From: a virus
Virus record (IMG/VR): IMGVR_UViG_3300047121_000347
Location: 37,831 to 101,830 of that record
Length of the DNA: 64,000 nt
Direction: 5' to 3' (one strand)
Each line of letters begins with the position of its first letter. Position 1 is the stretch's first letter. The notes under the pieces are model-generated. The model did no database searches. It was not told the origin of the DNA and was given only the letters and a program-made list of their open reading frames with translations. A program made the translations under genes and the position numbers. This document shows, piece after piece, positions 793-35,100 of the stretch.

Positions 793-833
793 ATCGTAAA
801 GTTATCGGTTATTGCGAGGTTGAACGATTTTTA

Positions 834-862: not shown

Positions 863-892
863 GCTATACCCAACCACCGTGCGGGGTCTTTT

Positions 893-1120: not shown

Positions 1121-1123
1121 CGC

Positions 1124-1333: not shown

Positions 1334-1335
1334 GC

Positions 1336-1569: not shown

Positions 1570-1570
1570 T

Positions 1571-1708
1571 TCAATACCCCCATCGAATACGGAAGCACAC
1601 CAGATACAGGTGCAGTACAAATTCGCTGCCACTGCTCATGAACCCCACGGCGAAGCAGGGCCACTTGCGCGGCAAGAATTCAGTAGTTAGATGTAAACTT
1701 TTTCGCAT
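1571..1708 (-). CDS. 45-aa small protein not in the ORF track (MRKSLHLTTEFLPRKWPCFAVGF...)
   Basis: Manual translation; GAGGT RBS; near-identical copy at 62173-62310. Confidence 0.7.
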   Translation of the reverse strand: MRKSLHLTTEFLPRKWPCFAVGFMSSGSEFVLHLYLVCFRIRWGY

Positions 1709-1711
1709 ACA

Positions 1712-1954
1712 TTACCTCTGTGGGTTAAAGCCAAGCCGACGCATACCCAACTCAATGAGCATTGCGGCGTCCTCAAGGCGGTTCTGACTACTGCTCATGC
1801 CGGTCTGCCATTCGCCGCCTACGCGTTTGCCGACAATAGCCACCGTGACGACCTCCCCAGATTTGGCGTCTTCCAGCCACTGCTCCAACATTTCTATGGC
1901 ATCAGAGTTGTCAGGGGTTGTAGCCTTGATGAACGGTTTGATGTTGCCTGTCAT
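1712..1954 (-). CDS. Early-cassette hypothetical protein
   Basis: MTGNIKPF...; near-identical to 61927-62169; GGAG RBS. Confidence 0.8.
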   Translation of the reverse strand: MTGNIKPFIKATTPDNSDAIEMLEQWLEDAKSGEVVTVAIVGKRVGGEWQTGMSSSQNRLEDAAMLIELGMRRLGFNPQR

Positions 1955-1956
1955 GT

Positions 1957-2226
1957 TTAACTCCTTGCTCGTATAGCGCCTGCGCTGTAGTCGGGACGAA
2001 CCCACTTGCTTTTTGCCACGGCGATGCAGTCGTTCGAATCCAGCATGTAATCGCCTTCGGTGACGCAGTAATCGTCTTCCTCTTTGATCGCCTTGCAGAT
2101 GCGCTCACGCTCGGCGGCAGCAACAAGGGCGGCGAAGCGTTCAAATAATTCGAGGTTTGCGCCCGTGTATGAGACTGGGTTAAAACCAGCCTCTCGCGCC
2201 ATGCGGATGATGTCTTCTCTGTTCAT
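1957..2226 (-). CDS. Early-cassette modular hypothetical protein
   Basis: MNREDIIRMAREAG...FAALVAAAERE; ATGA overlap with the upstream gene. Confidence 0.7.
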   Translation of the reverse strand: MNREDIIRMAREAGFNPVSYTGANLELFERFAALVAAAERERICKAIKEEDDYCVTEGDYMLDSNDCIAVAKSKWVRPDYSAGAIRARS

Positions 2227-2402
2227 AGGTTTACATTCCAATAATGTAGTTTGGTCATTTCAAGTACACCGATCACGGTTGCAACGGTCATGTGGTCGTA
2301 CTTAGGAGAGTTAACCAAAGCTCTTATGTCGTTCATCAAATCAATCCCCATAGCTTTTTGATCGGACGATGGGATGACTGTTAACTTTTTTTCTCTATCC
2401 AT
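2223..2402 (-). CDS. 59-aa small protein not in the ORF track (MDREKKLTVIPSSDQK...)
   Basis: Manual translation; GGAG RBS lies inside the upstream gene end; fills the operon gap exactly. Confidence 0.7.
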   Translation of the reverse strand: MDREKKLTVIPSSDQKAMGIDLMNDIRALVNSPKYDHMTVATVIGVLEMTKLHYWNVNL

Positions 2403-2853
2403 GATTCTTCTCCTTTAGCTTGGCTTCGATGAGGTCACGTAGTTTCAACAGAGAATCGTCACAAACCTCTCCGTCTGCTGACCACCAGTGCATCGCCTCT
2501 GGGTCATCGTCGTTGTCGTAATCCTCATGAATATCAAATCCTGCTTTCCAAGCCGCGACCATGACCTCCTCATCTGTCAGCCCAACCCATTCAGCAGCCT
2601 TTGGTGGTGCGGTGTACAGGGGTGATCGACCTTCGCCAGCAGATTTGTAAATCGTGCCGCATCCGACCGAATCAAAATGCTCACGCACCTCATCAATCTT
2701 TACCCAGCCCTCTACTGCGTTCCAGTATTCAAACGGCTCTGTCTCCAGTGCTTGGCGTAGAGCTTTGACGGCTTCGTCAAACCTTTGAACGCTCATCCTG
2801 CTTTGATATAACTCCAGCGCCCCAAGCGCCAACTGCATAGCTTCTCTGCTCAT
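2395..2853 (-). CDS. Early-cassette modular hypothetical protein (MSREAMQ / YTAPPKAAEWVGLT / IEAKLKEKNHG)
   Basis: Modules shared with 60191-60610, 60607-60987 and 61309-61659. Confidence 0.8.
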   Translation of the reverse strand: MSREAMQLALGALELYQSRMSVQRFDEAVKALRQALETEPFEYWNAVEGWVKIDEVREHFDSVGCGTIYKSAGEGRSPLYTAPPKAAEWVGLTDEEVMVAAWKAGFDIHEDYDNDDDPEAMHWWSADGEVCDDSLLKLRDLIEAKLKEKNHG

Positions 2854-3065
2854 GTTTTCTCTCCTGTTGCTTTAGCGATAGCAGCACGGGCTTTTGCGGC
2901 CGACTGCTGCATGTGTTCTTCCATGTGCTCAACAGCATGAAAGCTAGTGACCATGCCCCAAAGCGCCTCTAGCAGGTCTTGGTTCACCGCATGCAGGCGG
3001 CGCAGTTCTTCATGCGCTCGGCGAAGTGCTTCAGCCAAGTGCATTTCTTCAGGTTGCGGGTTCAT
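2850..3065 (-). CDS. Early-cassette modular hypothetical protein (DLLEAL...ARAAIAKATGEK)
   Basis: Start refined to ATG 3065; C-terminus shared with 60980-61312. Confidence 0.7.
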   Translation of the reverse strand: MNPQPEEMHLAEALRRAHEELRRLHAVNQDLLEALWGMVTSFHAVEHMEEHMQQSAAKARAAIAKATGEKT

Positions 3066-3406
3066 GCGAGTTCCTCCGGAATGTGAACGGTGTCGCCGAG
3101 TTTCGACGCCACATAGCAGCGCATGGCTGAAATGAGGGGGGTGGGGCCGTACTGGGAATTGCAAATGCCGTTGCTGAACGGGTCACGCTGATAAGAGCGC
3201 CAGCCTTTGTTGATGGTGGGCTTGCAGAAAATCCCCTCGCGCTCAATAATCGGCCCGCCTTGTGCCCAGTCGGTTGAGTAGTGAAACTCAGCATCGCCAT
3301 CACCCTCCGCGTCGCGGTAGAACAGGCGGAACGCTTCTTCGTCCACTCCTTCGCACTTCGCGACCGCCCAGTCGAGGGCGGGGCCGGATAGTTCATTGGT
3401 TTTCAT
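3062..3406 (-). CDS. NinX/DUF2591-like phage protein
   Basis: LSGPALDWAVAKCEG, YSTDWAQGGPIIERE and GPTPLISAMRCYVASKLG motifs. Confidence 0.7.
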   Translation of the reverse strand: MKTNELSGPALDWAVAKCEGVDEEAFRLFYRDAEGDGDAEFHYSTDWAQGGPIIEREGIFCKPTINKGWRSYQRDPFSNGICNSQYGPTPLISAMRCYVASKLGDTVHIPEELA

Positions 3407-3657
3407 GCGCGGTCTCCTGCGTGTAGTTGCCAATCCTCAACGGGTTCGGGCTGCCGGGCATACCCCGCCGGGAGCATCTCCGCTTTTATGTGCTCGGGGA
3501 TGAGCGGCAACGGTGCCCAAGCCAACGCCCACGCACCCCAGGTTCCGATGACGCACACGCCCCCTCGGTTCAGGAGGAGCATTTTCACGCCCAGCGGCGG
3601 GGGTTCCTCGGCGGGCAGTCGCCACGTGGACTGACCCGCGACGTAGTTCTTCACCAT
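3403..3657 (-). CDS. Early-cassette hypothetical protein (DUF551-like W...PP...W.PLP pattern)
   Basis: Near-identical to 59940-60194. Confidence 0.75.
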   Translation of the reverse strand: MVKNYVAGQSTWRLPAEEPPPLGVKMLLLNRGGVCVIGTWGAWALAWAPLPLIPEHIKAEMLPAGYARQPEPVEDWQLHAGDRA

Positions 3658-3965
3658 CTTTGTTTCTCCTCTTTATACGTGAGTGCGGTCACCCGATCGC
3701 GCAGCTCGTCCAGCTGAGCGAGCAGCTCTTGTAGCTCCGTGGCGTGCACCATGACGTAGTCGTTGCGTTGCGCCAGCTCGCGCACCACCGCCAACGAGCC
3801 GTCGTCCGCAGTGGCGTCCAGGAACCCTTCGCAAAGGCACACGTAGCGTCCGGCGCTGTGACTGGCGTTGCGGTCAAAACCGTGCGGGTGTGCGGGGTCT
3901 TGTGAGCAGCTCAGCTCGTCATCGAGGCTGCCGGGGTCGCCGCGCATATTGCGTTTCTTTTGCAT
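3651..3965 (-). CDS. Early-cassette hypothetical protein (HPHGFDRNASH..GRYVCLCE, possibly metal-binding)
   Basis: Near-identical to 59632-59946; GGAGAACT RBS. Confidence 0.8.
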   Translation of the reverse strand: MQKKRNMRGDPGSLDDELSCSQDPAHPHGFDRNASHSAGRYVCLCEGFLDATADDGSLAVVRELAQRNDYVMVHATELQELLAQLDELRDRVTALTYKEEKQRW

Positions 3966-3981
3966 TTTCAGTTCTCCATAG

Positions 3982-4893
3982 TTATCGTAAATCTCTTTTA
4001 TCGTTCCAATCGCGTTGGCTATCGACGGGTATATCTTTCACGGCATCGTGTTGAGCTTGGATGATAGCGTCAGAACCAACGTTGATGAATATAGCACCGG
4101 GTGCTGCATACTGTTCGAAACTCTTCCAACACTTAGCATCATAGTTTACGGTGGAGTCGAACGGCGGGCGCAGCTCTTCGGCTACCGGTTTCAGGAACGG
4201 TAACGTAGATCCAATGATCTTTGCGTGGCCGATTTCGCCGGGTTGCATGTTTCGCGCAACCGCAATACCTTTGCATTTAGTGTTCGGCCAAGCGATCTGA
4301 AACGCTCGGATAGCGGTGCCCGTCGAAACGCTCATCCAAACTTCGGTCGGTTCGCCACCAATTTGCTCGCTGATCCGAGCAGCCAGCTTCACGAGTCCCG
4401 CAGTCACCAACGGCGCTTTCGACAACCCCGGTGGTAAATATTCAGCACCATGCTTTTCAGCCCAAGCCTTTGCCCAACCGTTCAGGTTCGGCATGCGGAC
4501 GATCTTAGCGAACCGTAGCTCAGCACCATGGTAAAGCAGAGCGCGTTGATGCACTGAGAGCTCTTTGGCTGCAGGGCAAAAGAAAACACACTTTTTACCA
4601 TACAGTTTGCCGAGCGTCGCAATCGCGTTGGGGGCCATGCCGGCCCGAGGTGCTACGTAAACGAGTTTGTCGCTCTGGGTTTGTGCGATGAGCTGCTCGG
4701 CTCCGTAACCCTTGAGGCTGATCTGGCTCAAGTCACCTCGAAAAACCCATCGATTGCCATGCGAGATAACGACTGGCGGAGTTAATTTAGATACGAATTT
4801 ACTGCTCATCGACAAATAATGTTCGCGTGCTCGGTGCACGTCCATTCCGGTCGGGATGTCGCGGTTAGTGCGGTCTTCGGTTACGGTGAACAT
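3982..4893 (-). CDS. PLP-dependent enzyme, fold type II (cysteine synthase / ACC deaminase-like)
   Basis: FRGDL...SLK (PLP lysine), SVSTGT phosphate loop, NYDAK; GAGGAG RBS favours ATG 4893. Confidence 0.7.
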   Translation of the reverse strand: MFTVTEDRTNRDIPTGMDVHRAREHYLSMSSKFVSKLTPPVVISHGNRWVFRGDLSQISLKGYGAEQLIAQTQSDKLVYVAPRAGMAPNAIATLGKLYGKKCVFFCPAAKELSVHQRALLYHGAELRFAKIVRMPNLNGWAKAWAEKHGAEYLPPGLSKAPLVTAGLVKLAARISEQIGGEPTEVWMSVSTGTAIRAFQIAWPNTKCKGIAVARNMQPGEIGHAKIIGSTLPFLKPVAEELRPPFDSTVNYDAKCWKSFEQYAAPGAIFINVGSDAIIQAQHDAVKDIPVDSQRDWNDKRDLR

Positions 4894-4898
4894 TAGAC

Positions 4899-5081
4899 TC
4901 AATGCTCCTCGGTGGCTTTGATTGACTCGACCTCGACGTCGTGGTCGTTGACGTTAGGGTAGTCGCTTTCGTAAAGCTCTTCGATGGCGAGCTCGGCAGC
5001 TGCTTCAGCGTTCTCGGCTTCGACTTGAATACGCACAAAACTAGTCAGGCGTAATTCGACTTCAAAGGTTTTCTTTTCCAT
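4899..5081 (-). CDS. Small acidic protein (V.VEAENAEAA.E.A motif)
   Basis: GGAGAACT RBS before ATG 5081; first gene of the cassette. Confidence 0.7.
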   Translation of the reverse strand: MEKKTFEVELRLTSFVRIQVEAENAEAAAELAIEELYESDYPNVNDHDVEVESIKATEEH

Positions 5082-5131
5082 GTTTAGTTCTCCAATTAAG
5101 TTATTGAGTTGTTTCATTTACCACTGACCGA

Positions 5132-5160
5132 ACTATAGTGCACTTTTTTGCTGCTGAAAA
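5132..5160 (-). promoter_or_regulatory. Putative early promoter (TTTTCA-17-TATAGT)
   Basis: AT-rich region upstream of the first cassette gene. Confidence 0.45.
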
Positions 5161-5232
5161 GAAAATCATTCAAGCAGCCGCTGAGCGGTTCAATGAGGTA
5201 GTTGAACGGCATTGAATTAGCCTTAACAAGCC

Positions 5233-5675
5233 ATCGTTTGGGCGATCGTTCGGGGTGATCGTTCGACCAAACGATCGACCAAACGATCGGTTTCAGAGCG
5301 GCTAAAACGTTCGACGGTCAGTGGTTGCCATTAGGGGTGTAGCATGTTGCCGTTAGGGACTTAAAAAAGACCGTTCGAGGAACCTTAAAAGTGATCGTTC
5401 GTTTGGTTTGATCGTTCTTAAAGAAACCGACCGAACGAACGATCGATTTTGGGGTTCTTGAGGGAGAGCTGAGCGGTCGTATTTGGGGTGTGAACGGTAG
5501 GGGTTGAATCTGTGCGTAAACGCTCCCTTGTCGCTCTGATCGGCTGCGGTGTGGGGAGGCCAAAGGCACTCCCCCACACTCCGCCCAATCCGAGCTCCTG
5601 AGCTTGCGTTGGCTGCGATCGTTCGGTCGGCTAATCGTTCGAACGATCGACCAAACGATCAAAACCGAACGATCG
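5233..5675. repeat. Non-coding cluster of GATCGTTCG/CGAACGATC repeats with a central imperfect hairpin (5533-5595); candidate origin or pac region, copy 1
   Basis: More than a dozen (G)ATCGTT/AACGAT(C) cores in both orientations; GTGTGGGG..CCCCACAC stem. Confidence 0.8.
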
Positions 5676-5684
5676 AAAATATGG

Positions 5685-5713
5685 TTGCCGACTGCGAAAA
5701 ACGTGGGTATAAT
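5685..5713 (+). promoter_or_regulatory. sigma70 promoter for the terminase/structural arm (TTGCCG-17-TATAAT)
   Basis: Near-consensus; ATG 5723 lies 9 nt after the -10 box. Confidence 0.7.
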
Positions 5714-5722
5714 CCGGCGAAT

Positions 5723-6196
5723 ATGAAAGTAGAAAAACCCTTGCAAGAAAAAGCTCCGGGCGAAAAGCGCCGCTCTGGAGGTGCGCAGCCCGGTGCGGGC
5801 CGACCGGCGTTTGTGCCCACGAAGACCGAGCGGGAGCTGGTCGCGACGCTCTCGGGGTATGGGTTGCCGCAGGATCAGATTGCGATTTTGGTCCGCGAGG
5901 GCATCGACCTCAGCACCCTGCGTAAGCACTTTGAGCGGGAGCTGCTGCTCGGCAAGGCGCACGCCAACAGCAAAGTCGGCAAGACGCTTTTTACCAAAGC
6001 CGTCGAGGGCGACACGGCCTCGGCCATATGGTGGTCGAAGACGCAGCTGCGTTGGGCCGAAACGCATCGCATCCAGCACGCCGGAGCGGACGATGGGCCG
6101 CTGCGGGTTGAGGTAAACGTATTTGACGAGATTCTGAAAAACATCGAGCTCAAACGGCGCACGTCCGATGAGGGCGGCGGTAGTGGGCGCGGCTGA
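5723..6196 (+). CDS. terS: Terminase small subunit, copy 1 (HTH type)
   Basis: GRP..PT, G...DQIA, TLRKHF..EL..G, GDTASAIWW.K motifs; overlaps TerL. The 5549 start lies inside the repeat region and is unlikely. Confidence 0.75.
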   Translation: MKVEKPLQEKAPGEKRRSGGAQPGAGRPAFVPTKTERELVATLSGYGLPQDQIAILVREGIDLSTLRKHFERELLLGKAHANSKVGKTLFTKAVEGDTASAIWWSKTQLRWAETHRIQHAGADDGPLRVEVNVFDEILKNIELKRRTSDEGGGSGRG

Positions 6197-7640
6197 TTCG
6201 GCGCTCCGGGACCTGCTGCAAGACGCAAAGCTGCGCGAAGAGTTCGGCCGGCTACCGCTCGAGCGGCAAGCCGCTTGGGCGTGGCGGGCGCTGTGGCTTT
6301 CGAAGGCGCACCTGCATCAGCTGCTGCCCCAGGGCGAATGGTGGAGCATATGGTTGATGTTGGCGGGCCGGGGCGCGGGCAAGACCCGCACCGCCGCCGA
6401 GCAGGTGGGGTGGTGGGCGTGGAGCTACCCCCGGACGCGATGGCTAGTGGCGGCGCCAACCTCCTCGGACGTGCGTGGCACCTGCTTTGAGGGCGACTCG
6501 GGACTGCTCACCGTGATTCCGCAGGTGCTCATCAGCGAGTACAACAAAGCACTGCACGAGTTGAAGCTGACCAACGGCTCGCTGATAAAAGGCATTCCGG
6601 CCTCGGAGCCCGAGCGGTTCCGGGGGCCGCAGTTTCACGGTGGATGGTGCGACGAGCTAGCGGCGTGGGAGTACCTGCAGGAGGCGTGGGACCAGATTCA
6701 GTTCGGTGTGCGCCTCAAGCTGCCCGACATGAAGTCCCGCCTGCTCATCACCACGACCCCCAAACCCCGCGACCTGATTGTTGACCTCATCAGCCGGGAA
6801 GGCACCGACGTCACCCTAACCACGGCGAGCACGTACGCGAACGTGGATAACCTGAGTGACAACTTCAAAGCGCAGATCCTGGCGTATGAGGGTACCAACC
6901 TCGGCCGGCAAGAGATCCACGCCGAAGTGATTGACCCGGAAGAAGGGGGTATAGTCAAGCGGGATTGGTTCAAGCTCTGGCCAGCGGAGAGAGAGCTCCC
7001 GAAGCTGGAGTTCATCGTTCAGTCGTACGACTGCGCGTATACGGAGAAGACGCACAACGACCCCACGGCGTCGATCACCTTCGGAGTGTTCAAGCCGCAA
7101 GACGGCCCGATGGGCGTGTTGGTCATCGACGCGTGGCAGGATCACCTGCAGTACCCCGACTTGAAACCCAAAGTCATCGACGAGTACGACATTGTCTTCG
7201 GCGAGGGGCGCAATCTGAAGAAGGTCGACCTCGTGCTCGTTGAGGACAAAGCGGCGGGCATCGTGCTCATTCAAGACCTGCAGCGTGCGCATGTGCCGGT
7301 GCGGGCGTACAACCCCGGCAAGGCCGATAAGATCCAGCGCCTGAGCATAGTTGCCAACATCGTCCGCGCTGGCCGGGTCTACATCCCGGAGTCTAGCGCT
7401 CGGACGGGCTACGTCCGTGACTGGGCCGAGGGCATGATCACGCAGATCTGTAGCTTCCCCAACGCCACGCACGATGACTTTGTGGATGCTTTCAGCCAGG
7501 CGCTGCGGTACATGCGCGATGCGGGTTGGCTCAACATTGACCCCGCGCCGCGTGATGACTACGACCCCGAGGATTACATTGACGCCCTCAATGACTCGGA
7601 CGACTACACCGGACCCAAGGTGAACCCCTATGCCGCCTAG
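6168..7640 (+). CDS. terL: Terminase large subunit
   Basis: AGRGAGKT Walker A, RFRGPQ, WCDE Walker B, SYD...DPTA, FPNATHDDFVDA nuclease motifs. Start may be GTG 6183. Confidence 0.95.
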   Translation: MRAAVVGAADSALRDLLQDAKLREEFGRLPLERQAAWAWRALWLSKAHLHQLLPQGEWWSIWLMLAGRGAGKTRTAAEQVGWWAWSYPRTRWLVAAPTSSDVRGTCFEGDSGLLTVIPQVLISEYNKALHELKLTNGSLIKGIPASEPERFRGPQFHGGWCDELAAWEYLQEAWDQIQFGVRLKLPDMKSRLLITTTPKPRDLIVDLISREGTDVTLTTASTYANVDNLSDNFKAQILAYEGTNLGRQEIHAEVIDPEEGGIVKRDWFKLWPAERELPKLEFIVQSYDCAYTEKTHNDPTASITFGVFKPQDGPMGVLVIDAWQDHLQYPDLKPKVIDEYDIVFGEGRNLKKVDLVLVEDKAAGIVLIQDLQRAHVPVRAYNPGKADKIQRLSIVANIVRAGRVYIPESSARTGYVRDWAEGMITQICSFPNATHDDFVDAFSQALRYMRDAGWLNIDPAPRDDYDPEDYIDALNDSDDYTGPKVNPYAA

Positions 7641-10566
7641 CCTAATGCCCCCCAGCCCCGAGGAACTCGAAGAGCTCCGCGCTCAACGCCGCTTAAAGCT
7701 ACCTCCGGGGGTTCAACGCGCTACTGCGGCCGCCCCAACTCGGGGTAGCGTGGCCCCTGTGCCCGGAATCCGCTACCCGGCTGAGTTCATCGGCGGGTTT
7801 GCGGGCGCTAACCAGCGCCGCAGCGTCATGGAGCCCGACGCCGAAGGTCTTGAAAGCGCCTACCGCGCCGGGGAGGCCACCAGCGTGCTCGGTGATTTGT
7901 TTGGCTCGTTGACCCCGTTCGCGACCGCCTCAACGCTGTCCCGTGTGGGGGCGCTACCCGGCGCGGCGGTCATCAAACCCAAAGGCGGCAACTGGCTTGC
8001 CGGGTCGTTCTCGGCTGAGCGGGCGCTCGAGCCGTTGAGGAAACCCATGCCTTCCCGCGCCACTGACGCCTTCGGCAATGAGGTTCCTAACCCGCTGGCC
8101 AACTCGCCGATGTACACGGAAAACGCCGCCCTCAACAAGTGGATTGATACCAAGCTCACCAAGTACGTCAAGAACGAAATGGCTACCCCCGAGGACCCCG
8201 TCCGGGCACTCGCTGAGCGGGGCACGCTGCACTTTGAGCCGCAAGATGCCCCAAGGCCTATGGGGTTTGAGAGGGAGGGCCGGACGCTACGTGAAAACCG
8301 AGAGGCCAGCGGCTATCCTATTGAGGGTCTAGGTAAATCCAACCTCGCCAAGGACTGGGAGGCTCTCGCTGATATAAACATACAGCCCGATAAAGCTGAG
8401 GTGTTTCAGTCGATGCAGTTGGTTGAAGCAAACCCTTGGCTAGCGAAAGTGTCGCCTGATACGCCGGTGTACGGTATGAATCTGAGCACCGATATGTCTA
8501 AGCTCGGCTTCCCGCACATCATCGACGAGCTAACCAACGCCATGAACCCCAACTCGGGGCTGCCGGCGTCGTTGCGGCTGACCCCGCAGCAGCTTGAGAA
8601 GATCACGGTGCCGCAGGCCGTCGAGCGGGTCGCAAAGATCAACGAGTGGCGGGCGGCGCAAAAGGTCGAGGCCGACGCCCTCAAGGCGCGCAACCCCGCC
8701 ACGTTCGAGCACCGCGCCTATGAGACCGTTCCGGGCACCACCGAGCCCAACGAGAAAGGCCTGCGTTGGGTAGAGTTGAAAGCCTCCACAGAGCCCGTCG
8801 ACGTGAGTAGCATGCTGATTCAAAACGCCGGCAAGTACTCAATCCTTGAGCCGGGGCAGAAACTATCCTGGAAAGACCCTAAGACCGGGCGCGTGCTGTT
8901 TGACACACCCGAGAAAGCCGCCAAGGCTTACACCGAGCACAAGCATTACGCCTCACTCGAGGACGCCCTCAAGTACGAGGGCGACGTCATGGGGCACTGC
9001 GTCGGGGGCTACTGTCCGGACGTCATCGAGGGGCGCAGCCGCATTTACAGCCTGCGCGACAAGAAGGGCGAACCCCACGTAACGATTGAGGTCGCGCCTC
9101 ACAATCCGAATCTTGAGTCTGTTTACGCGAAACAGAACCTCCCTGAGCTTTACGCAAAGTACAGCGCAGATCGAAATAAGTATTCTAACAGTTGGCCTGA
9201 ATTTCTTAAAACAGAAGCGCCAGAACTTTTAAACGCAACGGAAAACAAAATCATCCAAATCAAAGGCAAGGCCAACCGAGCCCCCAAGGACGAGTATCTG
9301 CCCTTTGTGCAGGACTTCGTGCGTTCGGGGCGGTGGTCGAGTGTCGGGGACTTAGGTAACACCGGGCTGATCCGTATCAACCCCGACAGCGACCTAGGTA
9401 TGAACCTTCGAGCCGCGAATGTAACCGCGCCCGAGTTCGTCACGCAACGCCAACTCAGCGATCTCTTAGACAAATACGGCAGGACAAACCTACCGCCTAG
9501 TAGCCCAGAAGGCTACGCCGCCGGTGGCGCGGTGCGCATGAACGAGGGCGGCAAACCCCCTAAGCGTCGGGCGTCAGACCTGCCCGGTTACGGCGAGGGC
9601 TCCGCCGGAGCGTTGAGCGACGTGGTGCGCGGGTTCATGGGCGAGAAACCCGCCGAACCCACCAACCCCAGCGAGCTGTTCCGACTGGCGCAAGCCCTCG
9701 GGGCGTTTCCGCCGGTGGCGGGCGCAGTCGGGGCCGTGAAGCGTCCCGCCGGGGCAGCGGCTGCGTTGCGCGAGCTGTTGAAAACCGAAGCCCCCGCGCA
9801 GTCCGCCGCCGCTCGGGAGGCGCTCCGTCGTGCATACCGCACCGGCCACGAGCACTCCGTCGTGGGGCTGACCGAAGCCGGCGTCCCAGGCGAAGTTGTT
9901 ACCTCGGGCAACCGCACGCGAGTCATCCCCAGTGCGGCGGACGTCAGCCGAGCGGTCAGCGACCCGCAGCGTCGCGCGATTGTAGACTTCCACACTCACC
10001 CGAGCGACGTCAGCGGGCTGCGGGTTTCGCCCAGCGCGGATGACGTGGCGTTTTACGCCGACTACGAGCGGGGTGCGTGGCCCCGGACGTTGAAGACTTT
10101 CATCGCCTCGCCCCCCTCAACCGGAGGTGGCCGAGCCTCCACGGCGTACAGCTTCTTTGAGACCGACGTGCCGCGTCGCGTTTACGACAAAGATCTTTTT
10201 GAAAAAGCCGAACTGGAGCTGCAAAACGCGGGCCGACTCGGCCGGTTTGACCGCGTGCGGCGCGACCCGGCGTTTGCGGCGGCGTTTGAGTCCGGTGCGG
10301 TGGACCTGCAAGACCTGCTCGGTGAGGCGGCCCCGTTGTTGCTGCTCGAACGGCGAGCCGCTCAGGGCGCGGGTCGGCAGCGGTTGGACCTGGGCGCTAA
10401 CGCCGTAGCCCCCAACGCTGAGCTGCGTGACTTTTACGAGATGATTCGCGAGCCCGCTCAAGAGTTCCTGAAAAAGAACAAGCTCAAAAAGGGCGGTGCG
10501 GTTAAAATTGAAACTAATCCCACGCTCATGGCCGATGAGCTGTTGTTCAAGGGCTACAGGCGCTGA
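7630..10566 (+). CDS. Multidomain protein: PcfJ-like domain plus C-terminal JAB/MPN-like domain; probably virion-packaged
   Basis: EGDVMGHCVGGY..IYSLRD..PHVTIEV..QIKGKAN (PcfJ-like); EH...DFHTHPS..PSADD (JAMM-like); YAAGG, MNEGG and LKKGG linkers. Confidence 0.65.
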   Translation: MPPSLMPPSPEELEELRAQRRLKLPPGVQRATAAAPTRGSVAPVPGIRYPAEFIGGFAGANQRRSVMEPDAEGLESAYRAGEATSVLGDLFGSLTPFATASTLSRVGALPGAAVIKPKGGNWLAGSFSAERALEPLRKPMPSRATDAFGNEVPNPLANSPMYTENAALNKWIDTKLTKYVKNEMATPEDPVRALAERGTLHFEPQDAPRPMGFEREGRTLRENREASGYPIEGLGKSNLAKDWEALADINIQPDKAEVFQSMQLVEANPWLAKVSPDTPVYGMNLSTDMSKLGFPHIIDELTNAMNPNSGLPASLRLTPQQLEKITVPQAVERVAKINEWRAAQKVEADALKARNPATFEHRAYETVPGTTEPNEKGLRWVELKASTEPVDVSSMLIQNAGKYSILEPGQKLSWKDPKTGRVLFDTPEKAAKAYTEHKHYASLEDALKYEGDVMGHCVGGYCPDVIEGRSRIYSLRDKKGEPHVTIEVAPHNPNLESVYAKQNLPELYAKYSADRNKYSNSWPEFLKTEAPELLNATENKIIQIKGKANRAPKDEYLPFVQDFVRSGRWSSVGDLGNTGLIRINPDSDLGMNLRAANVTAPEFVTQRQLSDLLDKYGRTNLPPSSPEGYAAGGAVRMNEGGKPPKRRASDLPGYGEGSAGALSDVVRGFMGEKPAEPTNPSELFRLAQALGAFPPVAGAVGAVKRPAGAAAALRELLKTEAPAQSAAAREALRRAYRTGHEHSVVGLTEAGVPGEVVTSGNRTRVIPSAADVSRAVSDPQRRAIVDFHTHPSDVSGLRVSPSADDVAFYADYERGAWPRTLKTFIASPPSTGGGRASTAYSFFETDVPRRVYDKDLFEKAELELQNAGRLGRFDRVRRDPAFAAAFESGAVDLQDLLGEAAPLLLLERRAAQGAGRQRLDLGANAVAPNAELRDFYEMIREPAQEFLKKNKLKKGGAVKIETNPTLMADELLFKGYRR

Positions 10567-13290: not shown

Positions 13291-13478
13291 CCCTAACCCT
13301 GAGCCAACTGATTGGCGCATTCAAGGCACGTCAGGCTGAAATAGGCCATTCCCTAGCGGCGGGCAACGCTGCGACCTGGGAGGCGTACCAGCGCATGGTT
13401 GGCGAACACATGGGGCTGCAAAAAGCCCTTGACATTATTGAGAACTTTATAGAGGAAGAAGATGAACATGATGACTGA
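13287..13478 (+). CDS. Small head-module hypothetical protein
   Basis: 63-aa ORF coupled to both neighbours. Confidence 0.75.
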   Translation: MTLTLSQLIGAFKARQAEIGHSLAAGNAATWEAYQRMVGEHMGLQKALDIIENFIEEEDEHDD

Positions 13479-13902
13479 ACCAGTAGCGTCGCAAGACGCT
13501 GAGATGGCTTGGGCTTTCCCGAGCGTGGATCCTGGTGCGCAGCCGTTAGGTGGACGTATACTGGTGCAACTGCGCCGTAGCCGTAAAAAGACCACCAAAG
13601 CAGGAATCGTACTTGTTGAGGAAACCAAAGAGACCGAAAAGTGGAACACCCAGGTCGCCAAGGTCATCGCCGTGGGGCCGCTCGCCTTTCGGCATCGCGA
13701 CTCGATGAACCCCTGGCCCGAGGGGTCGTGGTGTGGGGTGGGTGACTTTATTCGTGTGCCCAAGTGGGGCGGCGACCGCTGGGAGGTCAAAGTGCCCGGT
13801 GAGGACCACCTTGAGGACCCCGCACTGTTCATGATCGTTAATGATCACGAGGTCATTGCCCGAATCACCACTAACCCCCTCGAGACTAAGGCATTCCTAT
13901 GA
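13462..13902 (+). CDS. groES: GroES/Cpn10-like co-chaperonin
   Basis: QPLGGRILVQ, TKAGIVL mobile loop, AKVIAVGP, VGD. Confidence 0.8.
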   Translation: MNMMTEPVASQDAEMAWAFPSVDPGAQPLGGRILVQLRRSRKKTTKAGIVLVEETKETEKWNTQVAKVIAVGPLAFRHRDSMNPWPEGSWCGVGDFIRVPKWGGDRWEVKVPGEDHLEDPALFMIVNDHEVIARITTNPLETKAFL

Positions 13903-14909: not shown

Positions 14910-15458
14910 ATGGATTCAAGACTTAAGAAATCTCTCTCCGCCGGTGGACGCGAAAGCCGCGCAAGCGAAGACCTCGACCGCCTTCCGCCGGAGACTATGT
15001 TCGCCGCCTCACAGGACATCGACAAGATGTGGAGTGACGAGTGGACGCAAACCGCCCTGCCGAACGTGCCCGCCCTGCCGGGTTGGCACATGTGCTGGCT
15101 TTCCACCACCAACAGCTACGACACGATTGACAAGCGAATCCGACTGGGGTACGTTCCGGTGACAGCCGATGAGTTACCTGGGTTTGAGAATTATCGCGTA
15201 AAAGCGGGCGAGCATGTGGGTCACATTTCGTGCAACGAAATGTTGCTGTTCAAGATTCCGACTGAACTCTACCAGCGGGTCATGGCGCATTTCCATTATC
15301 AAAAACCAATGGAAGCAACTCAAGCGATCATGGAACGTATGGAGGAACTTCAGCAGGGCGCTGACAGCTCAGGACACAAACTCCTGAAAACGGAAGGCGA
15401 AGGCTTCGGACGAGTGGCACAATCATCCGTCAACCGACCCCCGGTCTTCGAGGGTTAA
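14910..15458 (+). CDS. Conserved head-module protein
   Basis: PG..W...RLGYVPV...LLFKIP pattern; upstream of capsid genes. Confidence 0.6.
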   Translation: MDSRLKKSLSAGGRESRASEDLDRLPPETMFAASQDIDKMWSDEWTQTALPNVPALPGWHMCWLSTTNSYDTIDKRIRLGYVPVTADELPGFENYRVKAGEHVGHISCNEMLLFKIPTELYQRVMAHFHYQKPMEATQAIMERMEELQQGADSSGHKLLKTEGEGFGRVAQSSVNRPPVFEG

Positions 15459-17752: not shown

Positions 17753-18577
17753 ATGGGCCAATTTAAACCGATGGTTAAAATGATGACCACCGAGCCTTCA
17801 GTGATTCTGAAACTGAAGAAAGGCGGTTCGGTCAAAGCGCCCAAAAAGATGATGGACGGTGGGGTGATGCGTGGTCTTGCGGCCGCGCCTGCACCCGGTG
17901 CCCGAGGCGGGATGCCTCCGGCGGTTGCTCCGGCACGTCCCTCGATGGCTATGCGTCGCAAAGCGATGATGGCTCGCCCGATGATGAAAGAGGGCGGCGA
18001 AAGCAAAGCTGAGCACGCCGCTGAGATGAAGAAGATGATGGGCACCGAGGCTAAGCTCAAAAAGCACGCCTCTATGCCTGCTTCTAAAGCTCACAAAGGT
18101 CTTGCAACCGGCGGTGTGGCAATGGGTCAGGCAGGGTTCAAAAAGGGTGGAGTAATTGGCGTAGCGGCCTCTGAAAAGGGAGCTAAGGGTTATGTCAAGA
18201 CCAAGATGGACACTGCTTCAGGCGAGCATCACACTCCGAAGAAGACTGGCGACGTGGCAATGGGCAAACCCGGCGGTTACAAGCACGGCGGGAGCCCCAA
18301 GTACGCTAAAGGTGGCGGAGTCGAAGGTAATGTTTCGACGTCCAAACCCGGCCCAACCAACACCACCACTGGCGAAGTGAAGAAAGGCAACGCCGGGGGC
18401 TTTAAGAAAGGCGGTGCGTTGGGAAAGCGTTATGCTACGGGGGGTCTAGTCGATAGCGGACGTCCCGTAGCGATGCCTCGGCACCCGGTGTCGAAACCCG
18501 TGGCTAATGACCTGCAGTCCGGAACCTTCAAAAAGGGTGGCGGAGTACAGAAAAAGGCCTACGGCGGCGCGTGCTAA
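17753..18577 (+). CDS. Highly basic K/G/M-rich protein with about 10 hydrophobic-x-x-GG repeats; candidate internal/core protein
   Basis: LKKGG, MMDGG, MKEGG, LATGG, FKKGG (x3), YKHGG, YAKGG, YATGG, KAYGG. Confidence 0.75.
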   Translation: MGQFKPMVKMMTTEPSVILKLKKGGSVKAPKKMMDGGVMRGLAAAPAPGARGGMPPAVAPARPSMAMRRKAMMARPMMKEGGESKAEHAAEMKKMMGTEAKLKKHASMPASKAHKGLATGGVAMGQAGFKKGGVIGVAASEKGAKGYVKTKMDTASGEHHTPKKTGDVAMGKPGGYKHGGSPKYAKGGGVEGNVSTSKPGPTNTTTGEVKKGNAGGFKKGGALGKRYATGGLVDSGRPVAMPRHPVSKPVANDLQSGTFKKGGGVQKKAYGGAC

Positions 18578-18921: not shown

Positions 18922-19160
18922 TGGCTCCTGTCGGCTACTCCAGCGTTGCCGATCAAGCCAACACCTCAGACGGCTTTGCGTTAGGTGTCGGTGCCCAGAA
19001 TGTCATCGGAGGCACCGACTACGGCCTTGATGTTGGCGATGATGGTGTGGTTGACACTTATGGCACCATTCCGCCAACCACGTTTTATATTCTGGATGAA
19101 GCAACGCCAGGATATGTGCTGCAAGAAGACGACAGCAAAATTGTTTTGGAGCAATCATAA
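18921..19160 (+). CDS. Small acidic virion protein, putative fibre adaptor
   Basis: YILDE...VLQEDDSKIVLE C-terminus; TAATG coupling. Confidence 0.6.
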   Translation: MAPVGYSSVADQANTSDGFALGVGAQNVIGGTDYGLDVGDDGVVDTYGTIPPTTFYILDEATPGYVLQEDDSKIVLEQS

Positions 19161-19744
19161 TGGCCGACCAGAAAATTAGCGCAATGCCAGCAGCCGCAAC
19201 GCTGACGGGCGCAGAGCTTGTGCCGTTAGTGCAAAGTGGCGCGAATGTGCAAGCAACCATCGGTGATTTGCGGGCGTTTGGTGCGGCTTATGGCGGCTTT
19301 AGCAGCACCCAAGATCAGACGGGAAGCACCACTGCTGGCACGGCCATGACTTGCAACACTACGGATATTGCCGATGGCATTACCCTGGTTAGCAATAGCC
19401 GTTTTACGGTACCCAGTGACGGCATTTATAACTTTCAGTTCAGCGCCCAGTTCAAGAACGTCGCTAACGAGCAGCATATCGTTACGATTTGGATCAAGGT
19501 CAACGGTTCGGATCTTGCCAACTCATCGACGCAAGTTACGGTGCCAGCGCGTAAGAATGCAGGCATTTTTGGTTTTGCGGTAGCTGCTTGGAACTTCTAT
19601 TTAGATTTGAACGCTACCAACTATGTGCAATTGTTTTGGCTGCCTGAATCAACGGATGTAACGCTTGAGGCGCTGCCATCAAGTGTGACGCCTGCGTACC
19701 CGGCCATCCCTTCGTTGATTGTTACTATGGGGCAGATAGCTTAA
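19160..19744 (+). CDS. Short fibre/spike with a C1q/TNF-like (BclA-like) head
   Basis: MADQKISAMP..LTGAELVP.VQ N-module; FTVP..GIYNFQFS, W.KVNG. Confidence 0.65.
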   Translation: MADQKISAMPAAATLTGAELVPLVQSGANVQATIGDLRAFGAAYGGFSSTQDQTGSTTAGTAMTCNTTDIADGITLVSNSRFTVPSDGIYNFQFSAQFKNVANEQHIVTIWIKVNGSDLANSSTQVTVPARKNAGIFGFAVAAWNFYLDLNATNYVQLFWLPESTDVTLEALPSSVTPAYPAIPSLIVTMGQIA

Positions 19745-20149
19745 ATGCCTGCCAAGACTAAAGCACAGTTCCGGCTGATGAAAGCGGCTGAGAATAATCC
19801 AAAGTTTGCCAAGAAAGTAGGCATTCGACCTGATGTGGCTGCAGAGTTTACGCAGTCCAACGTGAAAGGGAAATCGTATGCAAAACTTCCTGAACGGCTT
19901 AAGAACGGTGGTCCGAGCCTTGCGATCGGTCGCGGTGAAAAGTTACCGGCGTCTCAGGGTGCGGGTCTCACGGCGAAAGGCCGCGCCAAGTACAACCGAG
20001 CCACCGGCTCAAACTTGAAGGCTCCTCAGCCCGAGGGCGGCCCACGGCGCGACTCGTTTTGTGCCCGAATGGGTCCCGTAGCACGTAAGTCTGAGCGCGG
20101 TTCGCGTGCTCGGGCCTCAATGAAGCGCTGGAACTGCCCAGGGTGGTAA
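19745..20149 (+). CDS. Basic two-module virion protein (DUF6321-like C-terminus)
   Basis: MPAKTKAQ.RLM module, LKNGG, then GLTAKGRAKYN...RRDSFCARM module. Confidence 0.65.
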   Translation: MPAKTKAQFRLMKAAENNPKFAKKVGIRPDVAAEFTQSNVKGKSYAKLPERLKNGGPSLAIGRGEKLPASQGAGLTAKGRAKYNRATGSNLKAPQPEGGPRRDSFCARMGPVARKSERGSRARASMKRWNCPGW

Positions 20150-20153
20150 AGAT

Positions 20154-21224
20154 ATGGCGTACTCAGACACTTACGGTCAGGTTTACAACGTTCAAACGCT
20201 AATTGATCACGCCGCTCGCCGGTGTGGTAAGTTGGCCGAAGAGCTCACCAGCGAGCAGCTGCTCACCGCGAGGGAGTCGCTCGGCTTCGTGCTGACTAAC
20301 CTCATCAATATCGGTATTCAGTATTGGGCTATAAAGAAAGAGGTCATCGGCCTGACGCCCGATAAGTATATTTACACGTTGCCCGTTGGGGCTAATGACG
20401 TGCTCAACGCGCTGTATCGAACCATGAACCGCCCCACGGGTAGCTATAGCACCTCGGCGGGCGGAACGGTCAGCAATGTAGCCGACAATGATGTTGATAC
20501 GTATTGTCAGCAGAGCTCCGCAAACGGCAACATTACGGTCGATTTCGGCACCGACAACCCCGTTTATGCGGGGTCTATTGGTGTGCTACCTTATGTTTCT
20601 GGGGGCGGAAGCGCCACTTGGACCTTCACCCTCAAGTATTCAACCGATGGGTCGACTTGGAACACGCTTGAGAATGTCGGCACAACGGTTGTGACTGACA
20701 ATCAGTGGTTGTGGTATGACATCGACCCCGGTCAAACGGTTCGTTACTACCGAATTGAGGCTTCGGGCGGCACTACATTGGCGCTGCGCGAGTGGTATGT
20801 GGGTAATAACAGTCGCGAGATTACGATGTCACGTCTGAATCGTGATGATTACACCAACCTGCCTAACAAAAACTTTACGGCCAACCAGCCTTATCAGTTT
20901 TGGTTCAATCGCACCATCCCGCAACCTGAAATTTACCTCTGGCCGACGCCCTCAGACCCATTTGTGCAGATGACCGTGTGGTATTCGAAGCAAATCATGG
21001 ACGTGGGTGAGTTGACCGATGAGTTGCAGATCCCTCAAAGGTGGTACCTCGCCACGCTCGCTATGTTGAGCCACCAGTTGTCGCTCGAACTGCCCGCAGT
21101 CCCTCTCGACCGCGTTCAGTACCTCGAAACGCAGGCCGAAAAATACCTGAACCTGGCCGAGCAGGAAGAGCGCGACCGTTCTCCCATTTACTTCGCGCCG
21201 AACATTAGCGTTTACACGGCCTGA
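20154..21224 (+). CDS. Head-tail adaptor-like protein with an inserted discoidin-like domain
   Basis: Helical N- and C-termini, LNRDDY..LPNK, LWPTP; DFG...YSTDG.TW insertion. Confidence 0.55.
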   Translation: MAYSDTYGQVYNVQTLIDHAARRCGKLAEELTSEQLLTARESLGFVLTNLINIGIQYWAIKKEVIGLTPDKYIYTLPVGANDVLNALYRTMNRPTGSYSTSAGGTVSNVADNDVDTYCQQSSANGNITVDFGTDNPVYAGSIGVLPYVSGGGSATWTFTLKYSTDGSTWNTLENVGTTVVTDNQWLWYDIDPGQTVRYYRIEASGGTTLALREWYVGNNSREITMSRLNRDDYTNLPNKNFTANQPYQFWFNRTIPQPEIYLWPTPSDPFVQMTVWYSKQIMDVGELTDELQIPQRWYLATLAMLSHQLSLELPAVPLDRVQYLETQAEKYLNLAEQEERDRSPIYFAPNISVYTA

Positions 21225-32151: not shown

Positions 32152-35100
32152 ATGGCGACTTCACCTTTATCGATAACGCCCGAAGCACTCAAATCGCTTT
32201 ACGATGACTTGACAAGCCAAGGTTACAGCCATGATGTTCTCGTCAATGCTGCGAGACAAAACTACGGCATAGATCTTGATCAGGCTTTGAAAAGTTCCGC
32301 GCCCATTTCTTACGCTGACAAAATCAATTCAGGACCGTTGGAGAAAGCCGCTCAGCCCACTTACGCCGAGTATCAAGCATCACTCCCCGCTGCGAAATCT
32401 ACTGTTCCTGGCACTGACCTAACGTACACTCGAACTTCAGATGACACGAGCTGGTTAAGTAATGTTCGACAAGGCTATGGGCCGCAGGGTCAGGGTGCTC
32501 GCACTGAAGAGCAGATACCGAGCCTTTATCGTGACCCGGATTCAGGTTACGGTGTTGGGGTTGAGATGGAGGACGGGCAGGTTCAAAAGCTCGTTTACTA
32601 CGACCCGCAAGGCCGAAAACTGCGATCAAGTATTTTTACTGCGCCAGAACTGTATAAAAACGCCAATGAATTTGGAATCAATTTAAGTGGAATCGGTAGT
32701 CTAGGTACAGCATTAGACGCTGCAGGAATAAAATATAAGCCCGGAGAGCTTTACGCAGGCGTTGGTTCAAACTTAGGGATCAATTTTAATGACATTGCAG
32801 CCGGTAAACTCGGCGCTGCATACGACTGGACACAAGACCCGTTTGCATCAACTAAAGGTCCATACGGCTCGCAGACGCTCGCCGAAAATCAAAATATTGC
32901 GCGAACGCTAAATGTTAAACCTGAGCTTTCAGAAAACCTTGCCACAATTGATCCTTATAAAGGACCTACGGGAACACGAAACTTTGCCGTAGTTATACCT
33001 AGTATTTCGGGTTCTCCGACCGTTGCATATTACGCTACTGCTGAAGAGGCTGAAGCTGCAAAATATTTATACGGAGGTACGCTTTATAACGTAGCTGAAA
33101 GTCCATTAGATGTGGGTAACGATGGGACAGTTACTACTTCGCAAAATGCGACCGCTTCTGCGCCGTTAGGTGCGTTATCTACCGCTACAAATACAGCGCC
33201 TGCAACTGGCGCACTACCGACAAGCGGTTTTGATGCATTTGGTAACCCAAGGGGTAATACCTGGACGGAAGACCGTTACAACCCCAATGATCCCGCTTCA
33301 TCAAGCTACATAGCAGACCCTAATGCTGGTCGGTATGTGTTTGATCCAGCCACTGGCAAACATACCCTTGTTCCTAGCACTGGCGCAACGTCAGTTACGG
33401 GCGCAACAGGTAATGACACTGTTACAGGCGCTCTTGATACGGCCAGTAGATTTTACGACCCAGTCTTGAAATCCAACTGGGAAATAGAAAATGTTGGCGA
33501 TCTTGGACTGGCAAACGATCCAAGATTTCAGGGTCAGGGTTCTCAGGTTTACATTGACCCCAAAACGGGTCGTATGTTATCCCGTGATGAATACTTGCAA
33601 GTTGCCAATACAACAGAGGCTGTTAGCTATCGCGCTGAACAAGAGCGCATTGCCGCTGCAAATGCAAAATTATTTAGGCCTGGAAACACATTAGACAACC
33701 CTCTTGCAGGTGTTACTGATTTTGGCGGCGACACTGCCATTTCGTTGCTTACGGCAAGCCCAAACATTTCTGCTGCAATACAGCACAAGTCAACATTTGT
33801 TAAGCCTTACAAGATTATTAACGGCAAATTACAAGAAGTGACTGATGCGGACATCACGCCACAAGACATCGCATCTAACAGCGTTTACTTTTACATTGGT
33901 GGCGCCACAGGTGGACCAGATCGCCAGCGCATGGCGCAGTTGTATCAATCCAAAGGTGACAAGCTGGTGCCTGTTGGCGATCCAAGCTTTTATCAAGGCG
34001 CTCACCCAGATCAAGCGGCTATGGACTTTGCAAGAATCGCATTGCCCATTGCGCTATCGTTTGTTCCAGGCCTCGGTACTGCCATTGGTGGTGCATTAGG
34101 CGCAACTGGCGCTGCTGCCGGTGCTTTAGGTTCAGGCGTATTAAGCTTTGGTACGCAACTGGCCATGGGTGCCGATCCTTTGCAGGCCTTAAAAGGTGCG
34201 GCGTTAAGTGCGGCGGGTGGCTATCTCGGCAGCCAGATTAGCTCAATGTTACCCACTGAAGTTGCAGGTATTGGAAAAAACGTCATTACGCAACTTGTAA
34301 CAACGGGCAAACTTGATCCGGCTGCGTTAGCAACAAGCGTTGGCACTAGCTTTGCCACAGACGCTTTGGCAGCAGAAACCGGCATGGACAAAGCCACTGC
34401 TGCAAAAATCGTTACGGCAGGTTTGCAGGCTATACAGGGCAACGAATTAGCCGCATTGACATCATTAGCTCAGGCCGGTATTCAATCAGGCCTTGCTGGC
34501 ACAGGAGTAACAGCACAATCACCTCAAGACCGGGCCGCATTTCTTGAGGCCAACGCGTCACCACTTGGGTTAAGTGCGCTTAGTCCGATCGCCGCTGAAG
34601 ATGAGGAGATTGCACTGCTGCAACGGCAAAACGCTGCCAATCAAGCCCTGTCAGATTATCTAGGGCCAGGCAATGACTTAAGCCGTGAGGGTCTTGTTAG
34701 TCAATTGAAAAACCTTGGCTTCACGGCAGATCAGGCCGAAGGTTTCGCAATACAAGCAGATCAGCGGATCAATATGCAGCGCGTTGGCGCTGATGTGATG
34801 AGCCGCTACTCAAAGATTGATCCTGAGTTCGGCACACCACAGCTTGATCGAGACATAGCGTGGGCAGAAATGGTTGCTGCTGGCTTTTCATCAGATCGTG
34901 CTAATGAAATATTGAACGGTATTGATGCGCAAAATGCGATCAAGTTAGAAAACAAACTGAGCGTTCAGTCTGCATATCAAAACTTCACGCAAGGCAAAGG
35001 CTCTGAAGACCAGCTACGCAGCGCTCTAACCTCTGCTGGCTATAACGACGCGCAGATCAACGAACTTGTCACGCGTGGTCGAGGTGTTCTTGAAGGTAGC

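Follow-up and report, generated by a model that had tools for sequence, protein, structure and literature searches.

A motif-dense basic protein in the late region

We analysed a 64,000-nt stretch of viral DNA (the window), which is the final part of the 101.8-kb IMG/VR record IMGVR_UViG_3300047121_000347, with attention to a gene for a basic protein of 274 aa and to the short peptide motif [FYLM]-x-x-G-G that recurs in it. By nucleotide self-comparison, the record holds ~1.8 copies of a ~57-kb genome. Record positions 9.2-38.7 kb align with 64.0-97.0 kb at 73-82% nucleotide identity, and two related phages are therefore joined within the record, either by chimeric assembly or as a tandem pair. 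The window represents the more complete of the two; the other copy is referred to here as phage A.

The late genes of the window lie on the + strand. They begin with the large terminase (TerL), a 978-aa protein, the portal (853 aa), a GroES-like protein and a scaffold-like protein of 330 aa. Conserved proteins of 182 and 204 aa without assigned function, the major capsid protein (MCP, 305 aa), a 227-aa protein and the 274-aa protein come next. These are followed by proteins of 101, 79, 194 and 134 aa, an adaptor, fibres, lysis genes and nozzle-type proteins, and finally by an 82-aa protein, a giant protein of 1991 aa and three proteins of 343, 539 and 454 aa, of which the 454-aa one begins with a lysozyme-like part. 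As neither a tail tube nor a sheath is present among these genes, the phage is short-tailed. Judged by the MCP, its relatives are MW202545.1 (88%) and the Caulobacter phages RW, GB2A, RLK and KcrB (75%); roseophage CRP-901, pelagiphage HTVC023P and phage DSL-LC04 are further ones. For comparison we used 80 related loci (given L-numbers), in which open reading frames (ORFs) were called and labelled by BLAST. MW202545.1 is L001 and RW is L003 in this set.

17753-18577, + strand: Lys/Gly-rich basic protein of 274 aa; pI 10.4, ten copies of [FYLM]-x-x-G-G, N-terminus MGQFKPMVKMMT and a terminal Cys

To judge from its sequence, the product of the 274-aa ORF is a late protein that is strongly basic and intrinsically disordered and has about ten copies of one short linear motif. 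It contains 18% Gly, has a net charge of +35 at a pI of 10.4, and its charge-hydropathy value is that of a disordered protein. It matched no family of Pfam or PHROG, a search of PDB sequences returned no meaningful match, and its look-alikes in the ESM Atlas were solely unnamed small viral proteins. Tandem DNA repeats were not found in the gene.

We scored the motif in a loose form ([FYLM]xxGG), a strict form ([FYLM][KA]xGG) and a seven-residue form ([F/Y/L/M]-[K/A]-x-G-G-x-[V/I]). The loose form lies at residues 21, 33, 78, 117, 129, 176, 184, 217, 227 and 259. An initial annotation, made from the letters of the window alone, had put the number of copies at about ten, and our count agrees with it. 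For a chance expectation, the GG positions were held fixed and the remaining residues were shuffled 3000 times. The loose motif was observed 10 times (3.07 expected), the strict motif 9 times (0.95 expected) and the seven-residue motif 5 times (0.08 expected), and for none of the three did any of the 3000 shuffles give a count as high.

Searches for homologues returned 4669 of 8000 candidates at E<=1e-3, a count that the low-complexity composition may inflate. Among the 120 best homologues, every one carries 7-12 strict copies. The residue at position -3 of GG is Y, M, F or L at 70% of sites, as against 13% expected from composition; position -2 is K or A at 70% of sites and position +2 is V at 31%. 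In this family, 59% of all aromatic residues sit exactly at -3 of GG. The N-terminus MGQFKPMVKMMT is conserved across the 120 homologues as well, and the final residue is Cys in 109 of them.

This C-terminal Cys recurs in a second late protein. It is the last codon of the 274-aa gene (18572-18574) and lies at 20132-20134 in the gene of the 134-aa protein, which ends ...RWNCPGW. A Cys within the last 6 residues was found in 54 of 68 orthologues of the former and 70 of 70 of the latter, and in almost no other late group; small proteins of DSL-LC04 end in GGSACK, TRIC and RWKC. The conserved Cys may reflect a disulfide or other covalent linkage inside the particle.

Distribution of the motif in the window and in relatives

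The following features of the window carry the motif or lie beside it in the proteins concerned.

7630-10566, + strand: mosaic 'polyvalent' protein of 978 aa, between terL and the portal gene, with a PcfJ-like part, a motif pair, a JAB-like module and a motif tail
9514-9552, + strand: internal junction YAAGGAVRMNEGG of the 978-aa protein (residues 629-641), between the PcfJ-like half and a swappable C-terminal cassette
9991-10044, + strand: JAMM-like metal-binding motif HTHPSDVSGLRVSPSADD of the 978-aa protein (residues 788-805)
10483-10563, + strand: C-terminal tail LKKGGAVKIETNPTLMADELLFKGYRR of the 978-aa protein (residues 952-978), with GG, a spacer and ADELLF
14910-15458, + strand: head-module protein of 182 aa, with an invariant N-terminal SRLKKSLxAGGR and the motif-like LSAGG at residues 9-13
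19745-20149, + strand: basic protein of 134 aa, with an N-terminal mini-module, LKNGG at residues 52-56 (nt 19898-19912), DUF6321 and a Cys near the C-terminus
32152-38127, + strand: giant protein of 1991 aa, with variable N-terminal cargo and a conserved C-terminal tape-measure-type module
37798-38127, + strand: C-terminal module of the giant protein, with FKSGGKV, YAKGGHA, then GPGDGQSDDIPAWLADGEFVFPADVV, a helix and a basic end
39140-39157, + strand: C-terminus WNKGGG of the 343-aa protein, in the ejection-protein block, encoded by the gene after that of the giant protein

All motif sites that the initial annotation had quoted in the 274-, 978-, 134- and 1991-aa proteins were present at their places when checked against the sequence. 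A count against the Gly-matched background, which it had proposed as a check, confirmed enrichment in the 274-aa protein and did not extend it to the 28 other late proteins of the window. In these the loose motif was observed 19 times (30 expected), the strict motif 6 times (4.3 expected) and the seven-residue motif 3 times (0.54 expected; a marginal result, reached by 6 of 300 shuffles). Support for a motif shared between proteins therefore comes from relatives and not from counts within the window.

In the 80 related loci, the strict motif was found in every orthologue of the 274-aa protein, at 27 per 1000 aa. It did not occur once in orthologues of the portal, MCP, adaptor, TerL, p204, p227, p101, p194 or p113. 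The scaffold-like protein, in which KAEGG had been taken as a variant of the motif, has the strict form in only 1 of 34 orthologues, and KAEGG is therefore probably a chance occurrence.

The 978-aa protein carries YAAGG at residue 629, MNEGG at 637 and LKKGG at 952, and its first half matches Pfam PcfJ at 33.3 bits (cut-off 25). This pre-portal position is strongly mosaic: across the relatives, its proteins have no fewer than eight C-terminal halves that are unrelated to one another. Homology to the corresponding protein of L011 covers residues 103-613 and the last 26 residues, which are 92% identical to the tail of this otherwise different protein; the cassette between the motifs has been exchanged. 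With the L051 protein, homology extends to residue 720, a breakpoint off the motif. Equivalent motif pairs are found in non-homologous pre-portal proteins (YAKGGKV..MAKGGDK and LAMGGAV..MAGGGKL).

All of the distinct pre-portal proteins listed, except that of L058, contain the strict motif. They have 1-3 motifs internally and, near the C-terminus, a basic-G-G-x-V/I-K/R sequence after which 4-25 residues remain. Such a basic-GG-x-V/I tail was present in 14 of the 17 distinct pre-portal proteins, compared to 3 of 453 other protein tails (Fisher P ~2e-21, a value that overstates independence because some of the tails are mutually homologous). At L064, three separate genes (153, 578 and 288 aa), coupled in translation, take the pre-portal position, and the motif ends each of them.

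Similar placement was observed in the 134-aa protein, which matches Pfam DUF6321 at 52 bits and whose N-terminal module matches PHROG families labelled 'virion structural protein'. The strict motif is present in 36 of 43 orthologues. In this family, varied N-terminal mini-modules are joined to DUF6321 or to further mini-modules through x-K-x-G-G, and the next module begins directly after GG.

The giant protein has FKSGG at residue 1883 (nt 37798) and YAKGG at residue 1898 (nt 37843). The sequence that follows them, GPGDGQSDDIPAWLADGEFVFPADVV, matches internal repeats in two tape measure proteins, those of mycobacteriophage Douge and Pseudomonas phage JBD30 (E 0.003 and 0.22 against PDB sequences), and by tblastn the module matches proteins of Nitrincola and Arthrobacter phages that are annotated as tape measures. 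The same C-terminal module is found at the same genomic position in otherwise unrelated proteins of 1344 aa (phage A), 639 aa (MW202545.1) and 580 aa (RW). An exhaustive search with the 146-residue module (window 37687-38127) gave 13,063 representative clusters at E<=1e-3, of which 150 listed representatives provide the counts of position and flanking motifs given here. In all 150, whose sizes range from 120 to 3022 aa, the module is C-terminal and caps unrelated N-terminal parts, and 1-4 motifs lie 10-50 residues upstream of its core. Directly before the core there are 14.5 motifs per 1000 aa, compared to 0.17 in the 164,000 aa of cargo further upstream.

The core itself, G-x-G-x-G-x-S-D-x-I-x-A-x-L-x-x-G-E-[F/Y]-V, is invariant in the alignment and present in the giant protein; the 274-aa protein lacks it and is therefore not a member of the module family. 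No Pfam model describes the architecture of variable cargo plus constant end. An AlphaFold2 (AF2) monomer of the giant module, built from a 16-sequence alignment, had a pLDDT of 55 and was disordered except for one helix, and the motif region is unresolved in the Douge and JBD30 structures. By its sequence, GGAVKIETNPTLMADELLF, the end of the 978-aa protein (26 residues) resembles this tape-measure-type element in a shorter form.

Two tape measure proteins with this element are known to be cut. T5 pb2 is cleaved after R1127 into pb2* and pb2C, and the C-terminal fragment is anchored in the tail tip (PMC10038345, Linares et al. 2023). At the cut, marked here by a slash, the sequence reads ...SFVPR/AEGGMMYPGVSYQMGEHGTEVV, that is, FVPR/AEGGMM...GEHGTEVV, which places it directly before the A-x-G-G of the homologous element. 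Lambda gpH is cut in its Gly-rich C-terminal region, at a site and by a catalyst given as unknown, and the fragment gpHC stays bound to the hub protein gpI (PMC12617516). Residues 733-790 of gpH contain FATGGFTGTGG...GIVHRGEFVF...YATGGYVG. As a cut at F733/A734 would give ~12.6 kDa on recalculation, gpHC of ~14 kDa would start somewhat upstream of FATGG.

At the level of sequence, these comparisons establish the specificity, conservation and placement of the motif and the homology of the giant protein's module to tape measure modules. They support the view of a specific, conserved short linear motif that is limited to a few late proteins, where it would mark module borders and C-terminal tails. 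The initial annotation had proposed a tag shared by predicted virion-internal proteins; its sharing is borne out by the pre-portal tails, the 134-aa orthologues and the module representatives, and not by the window counts. A keyword search of the literature found no published description of the motif, and a search with motif strings gave only primer sequences.

Two further proteins of the window have related sequences. The 182-aa protein has 1631 homologues, in whose alignments H60, C108 and H129 are invariant and C62 is nearly so. The 343-aa protein ends in WNKGGG and its homologue in phage A (record 19142-20188) in DFGG, a single observation with weak conservation; in both, the Gly-Gly is C-terminal and no tail follows.

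The motif carriers vary between relatives. In MW202545.1 they are a 449-aa homologue of the 274-aa protein (9 copies), a non-homologous pre-portal protein of 900 aa and a 171-aa protein ending in FKKGGKVNW. The picture is the same in the more distantly related isolate DSL-LC04: a 75-aa Gly-rich mini version ends in GGSACK, two small proteins encoded after the portal (83 and 114 aa) have the motif near their C-termini, a PcfJ-like protein has three copies at its N-terminus, and further copies are present in a protein annotated as 'tape measure'. RW has none of the pre-portal, 274-aa and 134-aa proteins, and no motif-dense ORF was found in any frame of it.

Some other features of these genomes were noted in passing. 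In RW, a SAM-dependent methyltransferase gene lies between two pieces in which the large terminase is annotated (L003:2445-5247). A tRNA-Val gene follows terL there and precedes a portal gene whose product has no BLAST match (1e-4) to that of the window, while the MCPs are 75% identical. In MW202545.1, a 412-aa protein encoded after the giant homologue (L001:37388-38626) ends in a poly-Cys run, SCCCCCACCCASGG, followed by KSRGGLPVKKG. The GroES-like co-chaperonin of the window (13462-13902), encoded between portal and scaffold, has a mobile-loop-like segment, KKTTKAGIVLV, and is kept in MW202545.1, RW and DSL-LC04. An analogy between this mobile loop and the motif was considered and rejected, as KTTKAGIVL has a single Gly in another register. 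Between window positions 1-6000 and 42000-64000 and record positions 9195-38706, some short blocks of the early region are inverted in one copy relative to the other.

Possible roles of the motif

We tentatively favour a role for the motif as a junction or processing signal, which would stand between exchangeable cargo and a short anchor at the C-terminus, in proteins that leave the particle through the tail. We prefer this because the motif flanks a module that is always C-terminal, closes stand-alone modules, lies between fused ones and is missing from shell, portal and tail proteins, and because the tape measures of T5 and lambda are cut at the motif or close to it and what follows the motif is an anchor that stays on the hub. 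In the window, the settings concerned would be the upstream flank of the giant module, the joint and the tail of the pre-portal protein and the mini-module joint of the 134-aa protein. Proteins bearing the motif would be carried inside the particle and expelled through the tail before the DNA. The C-terminal element may anchor the protein during assembly, and the chain would be cut during maturation or ejection, like T5 pb2 before AEGG. The cutter could be a host enzyme, a phage enzyme that escaped detection or the protein itself, and not the JAB-like domain. Cutting of the T5 type, when computed for the 274-aa protein, gives 11 pieces of 8-47 residues, ten of them net positive and one neutral. 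This protein would either be cut into such pieces or else act as a multivalent binder.

Several points weigh against a processing signal. A cut has been observed neither in the window phage nor in its close relatives. T5 has Arg at the position that is aromatic or hydrophobic in the motif, so that the specificity of a single protease is not obvious. In small stand-alone proteins the motif lies 4-25 residues before the C-terminus, where a pure separator would be needless and a docking tag would fit at least equally well, and giant proteins lack the motif at their internal cargo joints. Within the window, the motif is not enriched outside the 274-aa protein, and only the position of its gene would place that protein in the virion.

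A gene for the protease was not found either. No protease family of PHROG or Pfam matched the late proteins, and six-frame searches of the whole record gave no Peptidase_S78, ClpP, S77 or C48, in agreement with the initial annotation, which had noted no canonical prohead protease gene. The MCP has no room for a delta domain, as capsid profiles match residues 6-300 of its 305. We also considered the 182-aa protein as a hidden protease and found no support for this: the AF2 model had a pLDDT of 65 and gave nothing convincing (Foldseek E>0.3, VIA-align Z<=3.6), and no PDB sequence was returned in profile searches with this protein or with the 204-aa one.

Another possibility, nearly as likely as processing and yet somewhat doubtful in itself, is that the motif is an uncleaved docking or packaging tag for a putative repeated site on a conserved assembly component, for instance the portal, the internal core or the scaffold, by which unrelated cargo would be loaded into the procapsid, with the 274-aa protein as a multivalent binder. 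This would suit the motif's position at the extreme C-terminus of stand-alone proteins (the L064 genes, the 171-aa protein of MW202545.1 and the 83- and 114-aa proteins of DSL-LC04) and the same tail on non-homologous cargo. The three N-terminal copies in the PcfJ-like protein of DSL-LC04 point in the same direction, as position-independent, multi-copy use is typical of binding motifs. Moreover, the portal of RW is very different, and RW is without the pre-portal protein and those of 274 and 134 aa; this correlation with the portal is, however, one comparison. Long-tailed phages hold the motif inside the tail tube, where the C-terminal end of the tape measure has no contact with the portal, and T5 does cut at the motif. 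A tag and a processing signal are not exclusive, since the targeting peptide of T4 directs cargo and is also removed.

The motif could also lack any specific reader: low-complexity basic proteins may favour it as a flexible linker or turn, and recombination between module-coding cassettes would have spread it. Its position at mosaic breakpoints, the unfolded AF2 monomer of the giant module, the disordered character of the 274-aa protein and the absence of a tandem DNA repeat are all consistent with such a linker. Against this, the residues at -3, -2 and +2 are under protein-level selection, codons and residues being varied; further points are the concentration of aromatic residues at -3 and the conservation of the motif from short-tailed phages to the tape measures of lambda and T5, and some breakpoints lie off the motif, as in L051. 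We consider this explanation unlikely.

Slightly less probable still is a histone-like role, in which the uncut 274-aa protein would neutralise the packaged DNA within the particle and its motifs would serve DNA contact or spacing, with no relation to processing. The pI of 10.4, the net charge of +35 and the place of the gene within the head module agree with this, but the same motif on enzyme-bearing mosaic proteins and on tape measures would be left unexplained, and the gene is dispensable in the related Caulobacter phages.

The least probable candidate is the one that the initial annotation had put forward as the protease, the JAB-like domain of the 978-aa protein, which would cleave after Gly-Gly at all sites. 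Classic JAMM enzymes cut after a C-terminal GG. In the 978-aa protein, GHEHS...HTHPSDVSGLRVSPSADD fits the metal site E...H-x-H-x(7-11)-S-x-x-D and is bracketed by motifs. On the other hand, the module matches Pfam Prok-JAB at 12.7-13.3 bits against a cut-off of 25, has no match to RadC or to PDB sequences, and is confined to 8 near-identical clusters. Among the related loci it occurs solely in L012 and L015, with an unrelated RadC-like module in L032. Relatives that bear the motif without a detectable JAB-like domain, which the initial annotation itself had named as evidence against its assignment, do exist: the HxH..SxxD pattern is absent from 13 of the 17 distinct pre-portal proteins, Prok-JAB was not matched in MW202545.1, whose 449-aa homologue has 9 strict motifs, and in DSL-LC04 a motif scan of the pre-portal protein, the only scan made of it, noted no JAB while the motifs are kept. 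The JABs of polyvalent proteins, moreover, have been argued to be of RadC type, to lack the groove for a ubiquitin tail and to act on nucleic acids (PMC5512222). Since the module is undetected in relatives that keep the motif, the protease assignment fails as a general mechanism, and we rejected it on these grounds together with the sub-threshold match and the narrow lineage. From its sequence distribution, the JAB-like module is one of many swappable cargo cassettes and not the reader of the motif. Of the earlier proposal of a cleavage or targeting signal, the specific, conserved motif is supported and cleavage has precedents in T5 and lambda, and the cutter is not supported.

Comparison with known systems

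The capsid-targeting sequence of T4 is N-terminal, is shared by unrelated cargo and is cut by the prohead protease gp21 at L/I-x-E. The element in the window resembles it as a short terminal peptide common to unrelated cargo. In contrast to it, the element is mainly C-terminal and based on Gly-Gly, and a prohead protease was not found in the searches that were run.

The adenovirus protease cuts at (M/I/L)-X-G-G/X, and from the basic core proteins of that virus it makes small peptides that associate with DNA. Both systems have a hydrophobic residue ahead of Gly-Gly and a basic protein. The parallel, which the initial annotation had drawn, does not hold in register: the hydrophobic residue of the window motif is at P5 (three before the first Gly), five residues before the would-be cut and not four, and the T5 cut lies before Ala and not after GG. 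No adenain-like gene is known here, a search for family C5 not having been made.

The T7 proteins gp6.7 and gp7.3 likewise belong to a short-tailed phage; they are small, basic virion proteins that contain Gly, are not enzymes and are ejected at infection. T7 gp6.7 ends in SAFGGKK and gp7.3 has ARAGGKK. They differ from the 274-aa protein in the register, in having one or two GG sites compared to ten, and in showing no detectable homology to it.

Delivery together with DNA and processing into units have been predicted for the polyvalent proteins of phages and conjugative elements, with embedded metallopeptidases proposed as the agents (PMC5512222, Iyer, Burroughs, Anand, de Souza, Aravind 2017). 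The 978-aa protein is similar to them as a large late-gene mosaic with swappable PcfJ-like and JAB-like domains that are exchanged between relatives. On the other hand, the Gly-Gly junction peptide is not in that paper and an embedded metallopeptidase was undetected here.

The element itself has counterparts in the tape measures of T5 and lambda. In T5 pb2, the cut before A-E-G-G is followed by a core, G-E-x-G-x-E-V-V, and this arrangement recurs as YAKGG...ADGEFVF in the giant protein; pb2 differs in having Arg before Ala, a single site and a long-tailed phage as its setting, while the motif of the window phage is multi-copy, is spread over several unrelated proteins of a short-tailed phage and is known here from sequence. 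Lambda gpH has the same module, with a Gly-rich region at ~700-790 and a cut to gpH* and gpHC, but it is a tail-tube protein with two copies only.

It could be speculated that the Gly-Gly motif and the element that follows it form a general code for the loading, anchoring and release of injected proteins, common to short-tailed cargo and ejection proteins and to the lambda and T5 tape measures and read by a single activity, which would be a host protease, the module cleaving itself or a phage enzyme so far unrecognised. We regard such generality as unlikely at present. Were it to exist, it would explain the cleavage of both gpH and pb2, allow cargo proteins to be predicted from sequence alone, and provide a portable tag for loading foreign proteins into particles. 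The motif would make the loading of injected proteins and the cutting of tape measures testable across very different phages, from the short-tailed phage of the window to lambda and T5.

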